64,000 nucleotides of DNA, taken from assembly GCA_965197475.1 (NCBI GenBank), contig CBDANF010000003.1, positions 3,136,001-3,200,000 on the forward strand, in the 5' to 3' direction. The notes under the pieces are model-generated. The model was not told where the DNA came from and did not search any database. It saw only the letters and a program-made list of their open reading frames with translations. A program made the position numbers and the translations under genes. Position 1 is the stretch's first letter. The number at the start of each line of letters is the position of its first letter. This stretch comes from Candidatus Poribacteria bacterium. Its GTDB lineage: Bacteria; Poribacteria; WGA-4E; WGA-3G. This document shows positions 26,661-36,262 of this stretch, one piece after another.

Positions 26661-27407
26661 GTGCGGCTTGAGAAATATATCGCTACTTCAGGTATCGCCT
26701 CTCGACGAGCAGTAAAACGAGCAATTCGTGAGGGACATGTCTCCGTAAACGGCACAAAGATTGTCATTCCTGGGCACCCAATTGACGTGGAAAAGGATTA
26801 TATTGAATTTGAAGGAAAACAGGTTGAACCGCTAACAGAATGTATCTATCTCATGTTGAATAAACCTACTGGTTATTTGACAACCCGTCGTGATGAGCGC
26901 GGTCGTCCTACGGTAATGGATCTTTTAGCGGATCTACCTAAATCTATTTATCCAGTAGGGCGTTTGGATTTAGAGACTGAAGGTCTTCTGCTATTTACGA
27001 ACGATGGAAAATTCGCTTATCGGTTGATGCATCCCAGTCATGAGATTGAAAAGACCTATCTCGCGTGGGTAAACGGTGTTCCAAGCAATCGCGCACTGGA
27101 CCGCTTACGTAATGGTGTCGCTATTCCTGGCGGAATAACATCCCCGGCAAAAATCAAGCGGTTAAATGTGAAGCATGTTCCTATTTCAACAGTGAAGAAA
27201 AGAGCAGATAAGAACGAGACAGTATCAAAACTTAGGGTGATTATCCACGAAGGAAAAAAACGGCAGGTCCGTTTTATGTTTAAGGCGGTGGGGCACCGAG
27301 TGATCCGATTGAAACGAACGCGTGTCGGCACATTAGGGTTGGGCAATCTCCCGCAGGGGCAGTATCGATTTCTGACCCCCGCGGAAGTTGCTAAATTACA
27401 AGTTTAG
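26661..27407 (+). CDS. rluB: rRNA pseudouridine synthase (RluB/RsuA family)
   Basis: S4 domain 'RLEKYIA..GIASRR', 'PVGRLDLETEGLLL', 'EGKKRQVR'. Confidence 0.8.
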   Translation: MRLEKYIATSGIASRRAVKRAIREGHVSVNGTKIVIPGHPIDVEKDYIEFEGKQVEPLTECIYLMLNKPTGYLTTRRDERGRPTVMDLLADLPKSIYPVGRLDLETEGLLLFTNDGKFAYRLMHPSHEIEKTYLAWVNGVPSNRALDRLRNGVAIPGGITSPAKIKRLNVKHVPISTVKKRADKNETVSKLRVIIHEGKKRQVRFMFKAVGHRVIRLKRTRVGTLGLGNLPQGQYRFLTPAEVAKLQV

Positions 27408-28612
27408 TTGTCGCCTTCATCTGCGGCTTCCGCAGATGATTTTTTGACATCTGTCAGTACTTTCTCAGCACCTTGCTTCAACCGTTCATTGGTGGTGTGA
27501 TTCATTAACTTTTCAAGCACCGCAATAGATTTATCAAGCTGTCCGTCGAGTGAATAGGTAACCCCAAGATAATACTGAGCAAAGTCATAAACACTGCTCT
27601 TTGGATATGTGTTTATGACTTTTTGGAAGTGCATCTCAGCCATTTTTGCGCTTTCAGCTGCTACACCTTCTGCTTTGCCTTGAATCAGATTGACGTAAGT
27701 GAGTCCGATTTGCATGTGCATATCAGGAAGAAGTCCCGAAATGTTTTCTGGGTCTTTTTCGAAAACCCTTTCACTGAACGGGAGTGCTTTCTTAATTTTC
27801 TTCTGTTGCAAATAGGTAACAGCGATTTTGTGGTTCAACTTGACATCATTAGGCATCTTCTCACTAATCAGAAGTGCTTTGCCAATTTCGTTCTTACTAA
27901 GATAAAAGAAACCGAATTCGCGGTTAAGTTCAACATCATTAGGCATCTTTTTGCTAATCAGAAGTGCTTTGTCAATTTCATTCTTACCAAGATAAAAGAT
28001 ACCGAATTCGCGGTTGAGTTCAACATCGTCAGGCATCTTTTTACTGATCGGAAGTGCTTTGTCAATTTGTTGCCGTTTCAGATAGAGAATGGCAATTTCA
28101 CGGTTCAGTTTGGGATCGTCAGGCTTTTCCATGAATTTCGCCAATTTTTCTTGGAATTCTGCCTCTTTTTTTAGGACATCTTCCATTACAGGTAAAAATT
28201 CATCAGGAGCCGCGTAACCTGAGTGGTTCTTGATAACACCACCATCCGGGGCAATAAACAGAATTGCGGGGAATCCTCTAACCCCGTATTTTTTCCGTGC
28301 TTCCTCATTTGCAGGTTGTTCCTTAATTTCTGGGTTTACTTTGACAGGAATGAAATTCTCTGCGATGGTAACAATACGCGCATCCGTGAATGTGTCGGCA
28401 TCCAGCCGCTTACACCAACCTCACCAATCTGTATAGAAGTCCATCATAATGGGTTTGCCGGTTTCAGTGGCTTGTGAGGTTGCTTCTGCAATAGAAGTTC
28501 CCCATTGGACTTTTTCCCCTTCTGCAAGAACTGGAATTGATACTGCCATTAACAAAAGAACAGTAAGTCCAGCCAGATAGGGGACGTGTCGGTGAAAAAC
28601 AGAATTAAACAT
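27404..28612 (-). CDS. Secreted thioredoxin-fold + TPR-like selenoprotein (UGWC motif), 402 aa
   Basis: AAGGAG RBS and ATG 28612; signal peptide; 'GKPIMMDFYTDW-TGA-GWCKRLD...YGVRGFPAILF' reads in frame through TGA 28421-28423 into ORF 27404-28186; SECIS-like hairpin follows. Confidence 0.85.
27764..28123 (-). repeat. Four tandem 90-bp (30-aa) TPR-like repeats
   Basis: PDDPKLNREIA.../PDDVELNREFG.../PNDVELNREFG.../PNDVKLNHKIA...; the middle two are almost identical at DNA level. Confidence 0.85.
28392..28415 (-). promoter_or_regulatory. Bacterial SECIS element candidate
   Basis: GUGU-AAG-CGGC-[UGGAU]-GCCG-ACAC; the apical loop starts after a 16-nt spacer from the UGA and has G at position 2. 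Confidence 0.7.
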
Positions 28613-28814
28613 TAGTTCTCTCCTTATTTTAACTTGAGCGATCAAAATGAGGCATTTGCCTAAATTGTGATGTTGAGCGGAAATCCGCGCAAACGGGTAC
28701 CGCTTTCATAATTGTTAACATAATATCACATTCAAGAAAAAATGTCCAGAAAAAATAGGATGTGTAAATATTTTGTCACATAGGAGCAATGGATAAAGAA
28801 AACGGCATGTGTTT

Positions 28815-29085
28815 CTACTGTAGGGCGGGGTCTCTGCGCCACGCCAGCAGCACCAGCAGTGCGGAATGTGTAAGAAAACAACCTCCAACACCCTCTTGAG
28901 CCCAGCGGTGCGACAGGTGTATTACAACCCATATAATGGACACCTTTCGCCCCTCTGGGGCTTTGTGAATGGGGGTTACGACTGTTCTATACACCTTTCG
29001 TCCCTCTGGGGCTTAGATATCCAAAATATAGGTTTATTTCCTTAAATTGACATAAGGGTTTCACGGTGTTCCACCCAACCTACAA
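28815..29085. repeat. REP/MITE cluster
   Basis: Two CACCTTTCG(C/T)CCCTCTGGGGCTT units; MITE end CCTTAAATTGACATAAGGG joined to REP half TTTCACGGTGTTCCACCCAACCTAC. Confidence 0.7.
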
Positions 29086-29230
29086 GATGTCAGATGTTTC
29101 GGAAGTGGCTGATATTTAAAGTTCACGAATTGCTTTAAAAGGTTTGATAACATCTTCTAAAATAAGGTATAATGTTATAAACTTTAGCAGATCGCGTGAT
29201 ATAGATATTCCTTGCAAGGAGGAAACATAA

Positions 29231-29458
29231 ATGTCTAATGAACGACTGACATTTGAGGAAACGGAACAGAAATATCCTGACGAATGGTTGTTTATCGTTG
29301 ATTGCGAACACAGCGAAAACACAGAACTTCTGTCAGGACGCGTTTTAGTCCATAGTAAATCCCGTGCTGATATTTATAATGCTTCAGGGCATTATAAAGG
29401 TGGTGCAGCAATACGTTATACTGGTGAACTCCCGAAGGGGATAAGGTACCTGTTATAA
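29231..29458 (+). CDS. Small hypothetical protein (DUF5678-like)
   Basis: AGGAGG RBS; 'KYPDEWLFIVD...GRVLVHSKSR...RYTG'. Confidence 0.7.
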   Translation: MSNERLTFEETEQKYPDEWLFIVDCEHSENTELLSGRVLVHSKSRADIYNASGHYKGGAAIRYTGELPKGIRYLL

Positions 29459-31248
29459 TGACACACAAAATTGCAATTATCGTACTCTTACTTCTTGCCC
29501 TACCAATAGCAGCGGACGCACAGTCAGACTATACGATACCGAAAAAACATCGCGTCATTCAAGAATCGTCAAAGCAGCATGTGAGTGTGCCTGTTGATGC
29601 CCAACTTCCAAATGTAACCTTTACATCCCTGGAAGATAAAACATTCCACCTTAACACCCTCATCAAGCAGGGATCAGTTGTTTTTGTGTTCCTATCCGCA
29701 GAATGCCCAGTTGCCCAACGATACGCAATGCGGTTGAAGCGGATGGATGCCGAATTTTCTGCCAGACATGTTACCTTTATCGGTGTCTATTCCAACGAAA
29801 ACGATTCGGTAGATGATGTCAAGGCATACATAGCACGGGCAGAGTACCCGTTCCCGATTGTCAAGGATACCGATGGAAGTTTAGCTCGCCATCTCGGTGC
29901 GACGATGACCCCACAGGCACATCTTATTGATATGTCTGGTATTCTGCGCTACCGTGGCCCGATTGACGATAATCGCTACGAAACACGGGTAAAGCATAAT
30001 TACCTGAAAGATGCACTCGTAGCAGTGTTGAATGGAAAACCTGTGCCAGTGAAAGAGACACCCGCTTTTGGATGTACAATCCATCTCCCCGAATTGCCTG
30101 TCCAAAACCAGATAACCTATAGTGAACATATCGCACCGATACTACAAAAAAATTGCCTAACCTGTCATCATCAGGATGGGATAGCACCGTTCGCGCTTGC
30201 GGACTATGATAACGTGAAGACACGCGCTGTCAAAATTGCCGAATACACGCAGGCACGCCTCATGCCTCCATGGAAACCGGTGCATGGTTTTGGCGAATTC
30301 AAAAACGAAAGACGACTCACAGACACCGAAATTGATATGATAGCGAAATGGGTTAAAACTGGCACGGCAGCAGGTCCCGCAACCAATGACAAAACTACAC
30401 CACTATCTTCGGAGACATGGACACTCGGAAAACCTGATTGGGTTATTGATACCCCCGAGGAATTTGCCAAGTGCCATGCCTCAATTGTCATTACAGATAA
30501 TTTTAAGAAAGATATATACATACAAGGAGTAGATTTTCAATTAGAGAAAAATAAAACAGTGCGCGGCGTTACCGCAACCTTTGGTGCAAAAATCTTTACA
30601 ATGCGAACTGATCAACTTGATGGATCTCATGTAATTTCAATTGGAATAAGCCCTAACATCAGTGAAAAGGGTTTACATGGTGTATGTACACCGGGTTTTG
30701 CTCCTGTACTTCTACCTGAAGGCATCGGGTATCTGTTGCCAAAGGAGAAAAATATAATCCTAAACATAGAATATCACAACGCTGATCATCAGGAACACGA
30801 CGGTTTGCGGGTAGGACTCTATTTTTCAAAAACACCAGAGACCGCACAGTTACGTAAAGCAACTCTCATGAACCGCCTACTGAAGAAACCAAGAAATTTG
30901 AATCAGTATAATGTGTTTTCTTCATACGACTTCAAATCCGATGTCTATGTTTACGGTGTATATCCATCAATAGATGCATATAAACATAATATGCGGATTG
31001 TTGCCAAAACTCAAACTGATGAACATATTAAAATGCTATGGATTAAGGCATCTGACTTTAAGTGGCAAGATATATACTACTATCAAGAACCGATATTTTT
31101 ACCCGCAGGTTCACGATTGGTATTTGATTTGCAGGAGGATTCGGAAAATCAGAATGTTCGGAAGTTATCCGATCAAAAGAATAAAAAAGCAGCTAAACTA
31201 ACTTGCCACTTCCTTTATGTGTTAGCATCTGAATATACTCCGGATTGA
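29458..31248 (+). CDS. Exported redoxin + c-type heme + copper-monooxygenase-like multidomain protein
   Basis: Signal peptide; 'ECPVAQRY', 'YRGPIDD', 'GCTI'; CLTCH heme motif; 'MPPW', 'DFKWQDIY'. Confidence 0.75.
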   Translation: MTHKIAIIVLLLLALPIAADAQSDYTIPKKHRVIQESSKQHVSVPVDAQLPNVTFTSLEDKTFHLNTLIKQGSVVFVFLSAECPVAQRYAMRLKRMDAEFSARHVTFIGVYSNENDSVDDVKAYIARAEYPFPIVKDTDGSLARHLGATMTPQAHLIDMSGILRYRGPIDDNRYETRVKHNYLKDALVAVLNGKPVPVKETPAFGCTIHLPELPVQNQITYSEHIAPILQKNCLTCHHQDGIAPFALADYDNVKTRAVKIAEYTQARLMPPWKPVHGFGEFKNERRLTDTEIDMIAKWVKTGTAAGPATNDKTTPLSSETWTLGKPDWVIDTPEEFAKCHASIVITDNFKKDIYIQGVDFQLEKNKTVRGVTATFGAKIFTMRTDQLDGSHVISIGISPNISEKGLHGVCTPGFAPVLLPEGIGYLLPKEKNIILNIEYHNADHQEHDGLRVGLYFSKTPETAQLRKATLMNRLLKKPRNLNQYNVFSSYDFKSDVYVYGVYPSIDAYKHNMRIVAKTQTDEHIKMLWIKASDFKWQDIYYYQEPIFLPAGSRLVFDLQEDSENQNVRKLSDQKNKKAAKLTCHFLYVLASEYTPD

Positions 31249-35265: not shown

Positions 35266-36262
35266 TGAACTCATAGCGAGTAAGAGCTAAGCATCGTTGA
35301 AAGTTCTCCGAAAGTTTATCATTGAATATGCTAAATTACGAAAACCTAAGCGTGTTTCTTTGAGTTTATCATAACTAAGGGCAAGTTTCCGATAAGTCTC
35401 TTGCCAACCCAAGGTTCGCTCCACTTTATATCGGTCTTTGTCCATTTCTTTGTTAAACCACCGGAACGGACGGGCAATCACAATAGGTTCTTTGGCATTC
35501 CGCCGGTTCGGATATATCACCGGGAGCAGCCCGTGTTGTTTGATAATCTTATGATTCTTTTTGGAATCAAAACCGGAGTCCAGTGTTAGAACGGAAGCAT
35601 TGAGGTCCATTCCAATACGATTAGCAAAGGCGATAAGATCGGTGAATGTTTCGGGCAAAATCTTTGTCCCATGTTGGTTGACAGGTTTGATGGTTATCGG
35701 GCTGATGATGAACCCTTGATTGTCAGTGATGATCAACTCTTTTTCACCTTTTTGATGTTTGTGGCCTGAATAACCGATGTTGTCCCCTTTTTTCACGGCG
35801 GTATTTGACCCATCTCCATGAAGTTGAGAGGTGTCAAGTTGGTCGGTGTCAAGCAGGTGTATCACTGATGCCTCAAAAAGTTTCTGATACGAGCCATCTT
35901 TTGACCACCGATTATGCCATTTATAGATATTAGACCAATGGAGTTCAGGATGCCGGGTTCGGAGTTGATCCCATTGAATACCCGTATGTAAAACATAGAG
36001 GATATAGTTGAATATCTTGTCCAAGGAGAGTTTCGGCTTTGGGCCTTTGACTCGTTTCGCTAAATGAGGTAAGATATAATGATTGAAATCCTTACGGGAA
36101 ACCTGCTTCGGAATACATTTGTATTTTGGGGCTTTTGAGTCTTGTCTGTCATAATAACATCTTTCATAATGTGAATGGATATATGAGGTAGAAAGGGACG
36201 TAAAGATCCCCTTTTCTTTCTCTATTTTACCACATCTTTATGTTTTACTCAATATGACTTCA
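35266..36262 (-). mobile_element. IS5-family element (transposase about 35287-36150, frameshifted near its 5' end)
   Basis: IR TGAACTCATAGCGAGTAA / TTACTCAATATGACTTCA; 'YVLHTGIQW', 'HGDGS', 'LDSGFD', 'RYKVERT'. Confidence 0.8.

Follow-up and report, generated by a model that had tools for sequence, protein, structure and literature searches.

Among bacterial selenoproteins, the 'Thiol:disulfide interchange protein' family (PF13098, with the motif UxxC) is given as 'predicted with high confidence' in Table 1 of PMC13188914. Fig. 2 of the same source describes the bacterial selenocysteine insertion sequence (bSECIS) as a hairpin with a loop of 3-9 nt, a G in the first two loop positions, an upper stem of 4-16 bp and a spacing of 16-37 nt. 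In sponge symbionts, SelA and SelB are reported to co-occur in most bins, while the majority of the corresponding reference genomes lack them (PMC5649159), and Poribacteria are named among the sources of group 4 hydrogenases that contain selenocysteine (Sec) (PMC13582414). The gene described here lies on the minus strand of a stretch of 64,000 nt from the genome of a Candidatus Poribacteria bacterium, referred to as the window. It combines a thioredoxin domain with a tail resembling tetratricopeptide repeats (TPR), is interrupted by one in-frame TGA, and very probably encodes, as a single gene, an exported thiol-disulfide oxidoreductase that uses Sec. Coordinates are positions of the window unless a contig of the same genome (C2 or C3 of genome G000) is named. 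Two points of comparison outside the selenoproteins are the gamma domain of DsbD together with DsbH, thioredoxins of the periplasmic reductive pathway, and E. coli YbbN/CnoX (3qou), a cytoplasmic chaperedoxin that is not known to have a CxxC pair.

Two called open reading frames (ORFs), 28421..28645 (74 aa) and 27404..28186 (260 aa), occupy one frame of the minus strand. When TGA was translated as U, this frame ran open between 28645 and 27404, one TGA being its sole interruption, and 78 sense codons (28420-28187) separated the TGA from the ATG of the second ORF, as had been stated in an earlier reading made from the sequence only. The text around the TGA, ...KPIMMDFYTDW-U-GWCKRLDADTF...KYGVRGFPAILF..., is that of a thioredoxin active site followed by the cis-Pro motif, and the motif quoted in the sequence-only reading (...DFYTDW*GWCKRLDADTF...YGVRGFPAILF) matches the sequence exactly. 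Translation most likely begins with the ATG 28612-28610 (MFNSV...), which gives a product of 402 residues with Sec as residue 64. At the position of this ATG, M[FIY][NY][SF] begins all of the same-genus orthologs (29/29), and orthologs of 342-402 aa share both the start and the single in-frame TGA. The stretch 27404-28612 is almost certainly one intact gene in which TGA encodes Sec.

The N-terminal 162 residues were used as query against 151 genomes of the phylum (Candidatus Poribacteria by their source names) at E <= 1e-10. Matches were obtained in 142 genomes, including all genomes of families f1 (99/99), f2 (10/10), f3 (26/26) and f4 (4/4); none was found at this threshold in f5 (0/5) or f6 (0/2). 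Exactly one in-frame TGA was present in 145 of the 150 listed matches, spread over 138 genomes of f1-f4. Of the other five, one had TAA and four had no TGA, two of these four being partial matches and two being different thioredoxin proteins. Seventy loci, orthologous or paralogous, were then read individually, namely 30 from this search and 40 chosen for diversity, with four second copies included. All 70 carried TGA at the same column, in four families and at protein identities of 31-81%, and the ortholog alignment showed the coding sequence to be conserved on both sides of it.

Outside the lineage the same column holds Cys. A database search returned 120 homologs, and the active-site motif was shown for 44 of them; Cys stood at the TGA column in 40, mostly as DFYTDWCGWCKRLDADT[FY], and the hits of this form with named sources belonged to Fimbriimonadia and Ignavibacteria. 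Homologs of other phyla have CGWC. The TGA thus sits at the attacking Cys of the WCxxC motif, where it had been placed before. The remaining four hits (P0003, P0065, P0073 and P0079) have Trp at this column and are read here as TGA translated under another code. No CxxC-type motif was found within the first 140 residues of 77 of the 120 hits; eight of these shortened proteins were inspected and all begin just past the TGA. The NCBI names of the relatives are 'hypothetical protein' or 'tetratricopeptide repeat protein', so that a conserved and, by prediction, exported redox enzyme is recorded as a 'TPR protein'. The suspicion that standard annotation misses the gene is borne out by these hits; it is split or shortened in public records throughout this phylum of sponge symbionts. 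No other letter at the TGA, and hence neither TGC nor TGT, was seen in contigs from four public runs (two studies, three of the runs being RNA libraries); the best-matching DNA run may be the source of the assembly itself.

The genome holds a complete set of selA, selB, selC and selD. SelA was matched with 534 bits, SelB with 349.8 bits (cut-off 242) and SelD, which has an in-frame TGA of its own (C3:3099237-3100163), with 370 bits; a tRNA-Sec (tca) is located beside selB at C3:3883431-3883524. SelA was matched in 144 of the 151 genomes, the five f1 genomes without a match being 73-95% complete. In the two f6 genomes neither SelA nor the thioredoxin-TPR gene was matched. TGA terminates 555 of 2402 frames of at least 300 codons and is thus an ordinary stop in this genome, in which the sole tca tRNA is tRNA-Sec and tRNA-Trp has the anticodon cca. 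That the gene encodes Sec is, on the sequence evidence, hardly in doubt.

Downstream of the UGA a hairpin is found that fits the bSECIS model and, as proposed, the bacterial consensus: the loop has 5 nt with G at position 2, the upper stem has 4 bp, the hairpin begins 6 nt past the UGA, and the distance from UGA to loop is 16 nt. Its apical part is marked by codon choice. Among the 70 Sec-form loci, the codon of Arg+5 was CGG in 64/64 Sec forms with Arg, that of Leu+6 was CTG in 70/70, that of Asp+7 GAT in 66/70, and that of Ala+8 GCC in 64 and GCT in 6, with GCA or GCG in none. Nearby four- to sixfold sites (Gly+1, Thr+10, Thr+12, Leu+19, Ser+20, Thr-3 and Pro-10) had codon entropies of about 1.3-2.1 bits, and the genome-wide shares within the codon families are 0.145 for CGG, 0.123 for CTG, 0.141 for GCC and 0.407 for GCA.

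Cys forms with the same peptide served as control. A first control with loci from genome contigs was set aside as too weak, since the KRLDA peptide occurred in only 1 of 80, and was replaced by a scan of metagenome contigs with a degenerate pattern that covers every way of encoding WCGWCKRLDA with Cys codons. At least 120 stretches matched, and the analysis covered 80 loci with 72 distinct sequences. These 72 Cys-form genes, identical in peptide, used CGG in 30, CTG in 32 and GCC in 28 cases. The 12-nt core CGGCTGGATGCC was present in 59 of 70 Sec forms vs 1 of 72 Cys forms, and in none of the 20 Cys-form loci with a G+C content below 50%; all four upper-stem pairs were formed in 58 of 70 Sec forms vs 3 of 72 Cys forms. 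Six loci have Gln (CAG) in place of Arg (CGG), and in five of them the partner Ala codon is GCT instead of GCC, an exchange of G-C for A-U; the exception is L074, and L017 has a G-U pair. For this pair (17-27) GC was counted 56 times, AU 5 times, GU once and another combination once, and helix 2 was paired in 96.4%. Conservation at synonymous sites, together with one compensatory pair, thus supports the apical hairpin, and the comparison of codons has shown a constraint at the RNA level that acts exactly over it. From the side of method, the locus is a clear example of a SECIS that overlies a conserved peptide: the signal lies entirely in the choice of codons, for which Cys forms of the same peptide provide the test.

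A number of results weigh against this interpretation and are collected here. In the 66 nt past the TGA the minimum free energy fold prefers another pairing, with z = 0.05 relative to shuffled sequences. The hairpin of the sequence-only reading is present at 28415-28392 with its 16-nt spacing, but its thermodynamics alone are no better than chance; stability was for these reasons dropped as an argument, and the case rests on sequence comparison. RNAalifold retained only three pairs, all invariant, with a covariation term of -0.14. The single covarying pair is supported by five sequences from two genera and probably reflects one or two events, and 12 of the 70 loci have only three canonical pairs in the upper stem. 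At fixed columns, 75% of the lower-stem cells were paired, and this stem varies by clade; where the Thr codon is ACU, the register of pairing seems to be shifted (AUGUA/UACAU). The fixed two-helix structure proposed earlier has -9.7 kcal/mol in the window (upper hairpin alone -5.5), the bSECIS free-energy criterion being -7.5 kcal/mol or lower, a value reached in only 27 of 63 sequences, with lower stems that are clade-specific. Folds with forced pairs impose a C-A pair in the Thr-codon forms, and those energies were not used. The hairpin is also minimal, as its 4-bp upper stem and 16-nt spacing both lie at the lower limits of the model. The core occurs in one of the 72 metagenome Cys forms and in L083, so that the core alone is no marker of Sec. 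A contig of 1,231 nt from a metatranscriptome library spans 27380-28610 without differences, but such contigs from RNA libraries are no proof of transcription, nor are their gaps evidence. Finally, the gene stands alone and not in an operon, with housekeeping genes and a divergent gene for an AhpC/TSA-domain protein as neighbours; the latter, about 850 nt away in the window, was found in none of the 29 flanks of orthologous loci.

L083 is a Cys form from a metagenome-assembled genome of Fimbriimonadales. It reads TGT GGC TGG TGT AAG CGG CTG GAT GCC GAC and differs from Sec forms only at the Cys codon. Its core is either a chance occurrence in a G+C-rich genome or an example of how a SECIS element could be present in a Cys form beforehand, or remain after a switch from Sec to Cys. 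A scan of the whole window with Rfam at gathering thresholds gave no match.

With the TGA read as U, Pfam domains span it. In the whole protein Thioredoxin_2 (PF13098) was matched with 55.1 bits (cut-off 27), Thioredoxin_7 (PF13899) with 53.7, Thioredox_DsbH with 41.9 and Thioredoxin with 36.2. The PF13098 match covers residues 59-153 of the frame counted from 28645, in which Sec is U75 and takes the first position of the xxC motif. NCBIfam scores were all under their cut-offs: 80.6 of 805 for the C-terminal part of TsoB, 53.9 of 330 for DsbD, 39.8 of 190 for DsbH and 25.3 of 300 for Trx7/PDZ. An AlphaFold2 model built from a 46-row alignment had a predicted local distance difference test score (pLDDT) of 92.2 and a predicted template modelling score (pTM) of 0.78. 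It shows a thioredoxin fold at about residues 37-150, a long linker helix, and stacked helix pairs up to the C-terminus. The N-terminus, kept in 22 aligned same-genus orthologs, appears in the model as a low-confidence lone helix (10-25) followed by disorder; export of the protein by a secretory (Sec-type) signal peptide is likely from its sequence. A look-alike signal peptide at C3:1190564-1190671 precedes an unrelated open frame and was rejected. Foldseek against the PDB ranked E. coli YbbN (3qou) first for the whole chain (E 1.1e-6, global TM 0.21/0.29), followed by the gamma domain of DsbD (1uc7, 2fwf) and DsbH (2ju5) with TM(target) of 0.70-0.77 and 23-26% identity.

The fusion of a thioredoxin with a TPR-like array that had been noticed earlier is seen in the model as a helical tail behind the thioredoxin fold. 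TPR_17 (35.0), TPR_19 (35.0) and TPR_6 (31.7) exceeded their cut-offs for the whole protein, while no single stretch passed alone, and the tandem units have 30 residues, not the 34 of TPR. TRF reported a period of 90 nt with 2.5 copies and 90% matches at 27843-28068; repeat units 2 and 3 are identical at 80 of 90 nt. In the window protein and 23 full-length relatives (342-402 aa), the repeat motif was matched one to four times at an exact spacing of 30 residues, and lengths of 342, 372 and 402 aa occur, among others, in the 29 same-genus orthologs. The array had been called expanding; its copy number does vary, but a direction, gain or loss, is not supported.

The following course of events is proposed. 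The ribosome would meet the UGA at codon 64, and the hairpin shortly behind it, with CGGC-UGGAU-GCCG as its apical part, would recruit SelB with Sec-tRNA(Sec), so that Sec would be inserted rather than translation terminated. The pre-protein would consist of a Sec-type signal peptide, a thioredoxin domain of the DsbD-gamma/DsbH type, and a superhelical TPR-like tail built partly of a variable number of 30-residue repeats. In the U-G-W-C motif, Sec64 would attack and Cys67 resolve. The direction favoured here is that the enzyme would reduce or isomerise disulfides or sulfenates of envelope proteins and would be recharged by the DsbD of the genome; a reductase or isomerase fed by DsbD is put forward tentatively. 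The TPR tail may be a module that binds clients or partners, by analogy with the cytoplasmic thioredoxin-TPR protein YbbN/CnoX.

Of the competing explanations, it is extremely unlikely that the TGA is a true stop, arisen by mutation or assembly error, with a 63-residue fragment in front and a separate TPR protein from the ATG at 28186 behind. Gene callers yield precisely this split, and the 77 database hits without the motif, with the eight inspected starts, fit it as well. Yet the TGA is kept in every locus read over a wide range of identity, the 78 codons up to the ATG show conservation at the protein level and supply the rest of the fold, with the resolving Cys and cis-Pro, the four runs hold no variant, and the fragment would be without most of the fold. 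A TGA that is read, only not as Sec, is likewise very improbable. It might be decoded as Trp or Gly under code 4 or 25, by a near-cognate tRNA, or by Cys-tRNA(Sec), and W at this column in four database proteins and G in full-length relatives of the CU-motif family described below speak for such decoding. It is opposed by the frequent use of TGA as a terminator of long frames, by the tca and cca anticodons of tRNA-Sec and tRNA-Trp, by 15 further TGA genes with known Sec motifs (14 recognised by Pfam, SelD by the selD model), by homologs outside the phylum that have Cys and not Trp or Gly, and by the full selA/B/C/D set.

A different matter is the task of the enzyme. It is quite possible that the gene encodes a genuine selenoprotein with another job than that of a reductase or isomerase fed by DsbD: it might form disulfides in the manner of DsbA, reduce peroxides or sulfenates, or act as a redox-switched holdase ('chaperedoxin') in which most of the work falls to the TPR tail. 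Sec is favoured in peroxide-reactive enzymes, and at least seven AhpC/TSA-type proteins of this genome contain it. The best whole-chain match in the PDB is YbbN/CnoX, and no operon link of the thioredoxin-TPR gene to dsbD was found in the window or in the 29 flanks. Set against these points, the thioredoxin domain is nearest to DsbD-gamma and DsbH in both sequence and fold by the scores given above, has no AhpC/TSA signature, and superimposes poorly on YbbN as a whole. A selenium-dependent envelope chaperedoxin is unlikely in its specific form, i.e. a periplasmic CnoX-like holdase-reductase whose TPR array would grip damaged envelope proteins while Sec would repair oxidised thiols, as part of a large, mostly exported selenoproteome for life in an oxidant-producing animal host. 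If it were true, that selenoproteome would include at least one paralog-expanded CU-motif family without a Pfam or NCBIfam model and with no Cys form seen. The preferred reading remains a Sec-dependent, exported oxidoreductase encoded by one gene, the features of which are compiled in the table together with related loci.

Table. Features of the thioredoxin-TPR gene and related TGA-containing loci. Positions without prefix refer to the window; others are given as contig:positions of the same genome or as genome:contig:positions.
Feature	Position	Strand	Basis
Whole gene, 402 codons including one Sec codon	27404..28612	-	ORF listing, TGA=U reading, orthologs
Shine-Dalgarno-like AAGGAGAG, 5 nt before ATG 28612-28610	28618..28625	-	putative, from sequence
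Signal-peptide-like N-terminus, residues 1-30: HRH, 17-residue hydrophobic run LAGLTVLLLMAVSIPVL, VLA/EGE	28523..28612	-	predicted from sequence
Thioredoxin-fold domain (DsbD-gamma/DsbH-like), cis-Pro motif G-F-P	28187..28471	-	Pfam PF13098/PF13899, Foldseek
UGA as selenocysteine codon, residue 64, first position of U-G-W-C	28421..28423	-	conservation, Cys homologs, reads
bSECIS-like hairpin, GUGU-AAG-CGGC[UGGAU]GCCG-ACAC	28392..28415	-	comparative sequence evidence
Hairpin parts: lower stem GUGU/ACAC; AAG bulge; upper stem CGGC/GCCG; loop UGGAU	upper stem 28405-28408 with 28396-28399; loop 28400-28404		
Four tandem 30-residue helix-turn-helix repeats, xPDDxxLNxxxxxxYLxxxxxxKALxISxK	27767..28126	-	TRF, motif, helix pairs in model
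C-terminal TPR-like helical domain and acidic tail	27407..27766	-	Pfam TPR families; model helices 257-399
Stop TAA	27404-27406	-	sequence
Second copies in same-genus genomes	G123:C123:167062-167457; G120:C139:11242-11637; G028:C33:15853-16245; G043:C34; G139:C130:22166-22549; G009:C32:7255-7650; G073:C215		
AhpC/TSA TGA genes	C3:1946859-1950257; C3:1590523-1591800; C3:1881609-1882286; C3:3922337-3922846		Pfam
Further TGA genes: FdhA, UGSC-family, PrdB/GrdB-like, thioredoxin-dockerin	C3:1052689-1055397; C3:2208581-2209105; C3:1916880-1917623; C3:4079399-4080124		
CU-motif paralogs, 450 and 529 aa	C2:244228-245577; C2:387180-388766	-; +	loci L174, L175; relatives L304-L315

The genome of the window has a single copy of the thioredoxin-TPR gene. 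The paralog search also matched two CHWC proteins resembling DUF255 and the gamma domain of a DsbD, all of which were rejected. Seven same-genus genomes hold a second TGA-bearing copy, with frames of 412-453 aa and the motif DS-U-[YG][WF]C, ...DADTY; in G139 both copies lie about 1.2 kb apart.

A convergent gene for a pseudouridine synthase overlaps the thioredoxin-TPR gene by 4 nt and is its sole conserved neighbour (29/29 loci). On the other side, the region of about 810 nt between the divergent genes (28646-29457) contains only short ORFs, the longest of 75 aa at 29231-29458, and no Rfam match. The adjoining gene (29458-31248) encodes a protein of 596 aa with an N-terminal AhpC/TSA/Redoxin domain whose active site has Cys, not Sec; about 400 residues past this domain are without Pfam match and include a CLTCHH motif. 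An ORF for an IS4/IS5-type DDE transposase (DUF4096, DDE_Tnp_1_2) is located at 35287-36024. The DsbD-like gene of the genome (C3:1089113-1090303) has its DsbD_TM domain at C3:1089665-1090303 and a thioredoxin domain just downstream.

The genome was scanned for TGA codons with coding potential on both sides. This gave 258 candidates, 93 of them with redox-like motifs, and 20 picked candidates were analysed with Pfam. The TGA lay inside the matching Pfam domain in 14 of the 20, and SelD is the fifteenth such gene. The remaining six comprised two paralogs without family match, L173, and three short noise-like ORFs; for L173, which has a CU motif, only a sub-threshold match to F5/8 type C and none in NCBIfam was obtained. 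The motifs of the 15 further genes (UxxC, TxxU, GMxUxxC, UHxP and UGSC) are known Sec types. The wider unannotated selenoproteome suggested by the sequence-only reading is thus confirmed for this genome, with 15 further genes and two paralogs; the total is about 18 candidate Sec genes, many with predicted signal peptides. Hairpins of the other TGA genes have GGA, GGU, GUC or AGGAU loops at 18-23 nt, and these, together with the present one, are compatible with reading by one SelB.

Six of these genes carry AhpC/TSA domains in which TGA opens the motif UxxC or UxxS, and three of them stand in tandem. Several have lipoprotein-like leaders and CarboxypepD_reg or Ig-like domains, and five of the six share a near-identical hairpin, GCAACUC-G[GU][UC]-GAGUUGC, 21 nt after the UGA. 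At C2:1239090-1240103 lies a tandem double peroxiredoxin with two AhpC/TSA domains (227.5 bits); its frame contains two TGAs, and each domain has one of them at its peroxidatic position (FTGG-U-TAE and FGRG-U-TVE). Three HMA domains with GM[VT]-U-GAC were found at C3:1876423-1877335 and C3:938419-940020; two belong to small adjoining proteins predicted to be exported, and one ends a protein with PSCyt1 and WD40 domains. Their nearest NCBIfam models, all below cut-off, were CopZ, MerP and a UxxU metal-binding selenoprotein. The FdhA motif is UHAP, the UGSC-family protein scored 167.6 bits and the PrdB-like protein 158.6 bits (cut-off 300), and the thioredoxin-dockerin protein has Y-U-IYC.

The two CU-motif paralogs have their in-frame TGA in DGPLxDE[SA]C-U-[GA]SGKxLR and matched nothing in Pfam or NCBIfam. 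The database holds 1627 relatives, mostly split at the TGA. Of 41 genomes searched in the order, 26 contain the family, a single genome having as many as 11 matches, in tandem arrays, and nearly every full-length match in the 41 genomes has exactly one TGA. In each of the 14 copies read, the TGA occupied the same column and was followed 23 nt downstream by a hairpin, GAGGGC-AG[GU]U-G..CUC; no Cys form was present among the relatives seen. From these sequences, the paralogs may represent a new, paralog-expanded selenoprotein family. 'Full-length' predictions of this family (P0125, P0134, P0138 and others) have G exactly at the TGA column, and it seems that code 4 or 25 was applied to these genomes by several pipelines, perhaps because the many in-frame TGAs raise the coding density under these codes.

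In the full-text literature, supplements aside, no paper was found on a thioredoxin-TPR protein of this kind or on the selenoproteome of sponge symbionts, and no list of sponge-symbiont selenoproteins was found. The closest described selenoproteins are the UxxC members of PF13098, with which the present gene shares the Pfam family, the UxxC position of Sec and the bacterial mechanism of Sec insertion; the comparison was made by table entry. The table of PMC13188914 names no TPR fusion and lists no thioredoxin-TPR protein, and Poribacteria are mentioned nowhere in that paper. TsoB (NF045694) and Trx7/PDZ (NF041199) are selenoproteins of the Thioredoxin_7 type. The present thioredoxin domain matches the C-terminal part of TsoB and, weakly, Trx7/PDZ, but their partner domains (rhodanese/DsbD and PDZ) and their Sec motifs (UxxxxU and CxxU) are different. 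DsbD-gamma and DsbH (1uc7, 2fwf and 2ju5) provide the closest solved folds of the catalytic domain and the best non-seleno NCBIfam matches. Unlike them, the present protein scores far under the cut-offs, has no DsbD membrane domain, uses Sec in place of the first Cys and has an added TPR tail. With E. coli YbbN/CnoX it shares the order of domains, thioredoxin and then TPR, but it differs by its signal-peptide-like N-terminus, U-G-W-C and 30-residue repeats, and the YbbN-type TPR (PF14561, TPR_20) reached only 18.3 bits at a cut-off of 25. The kind of protein, a UxxC selenoprotein with thioredoxin fold, is thus known; the fusion with a TPR-like tail, the lineage in which it occurs and the lineage-wide mis-annotation are the new parts.

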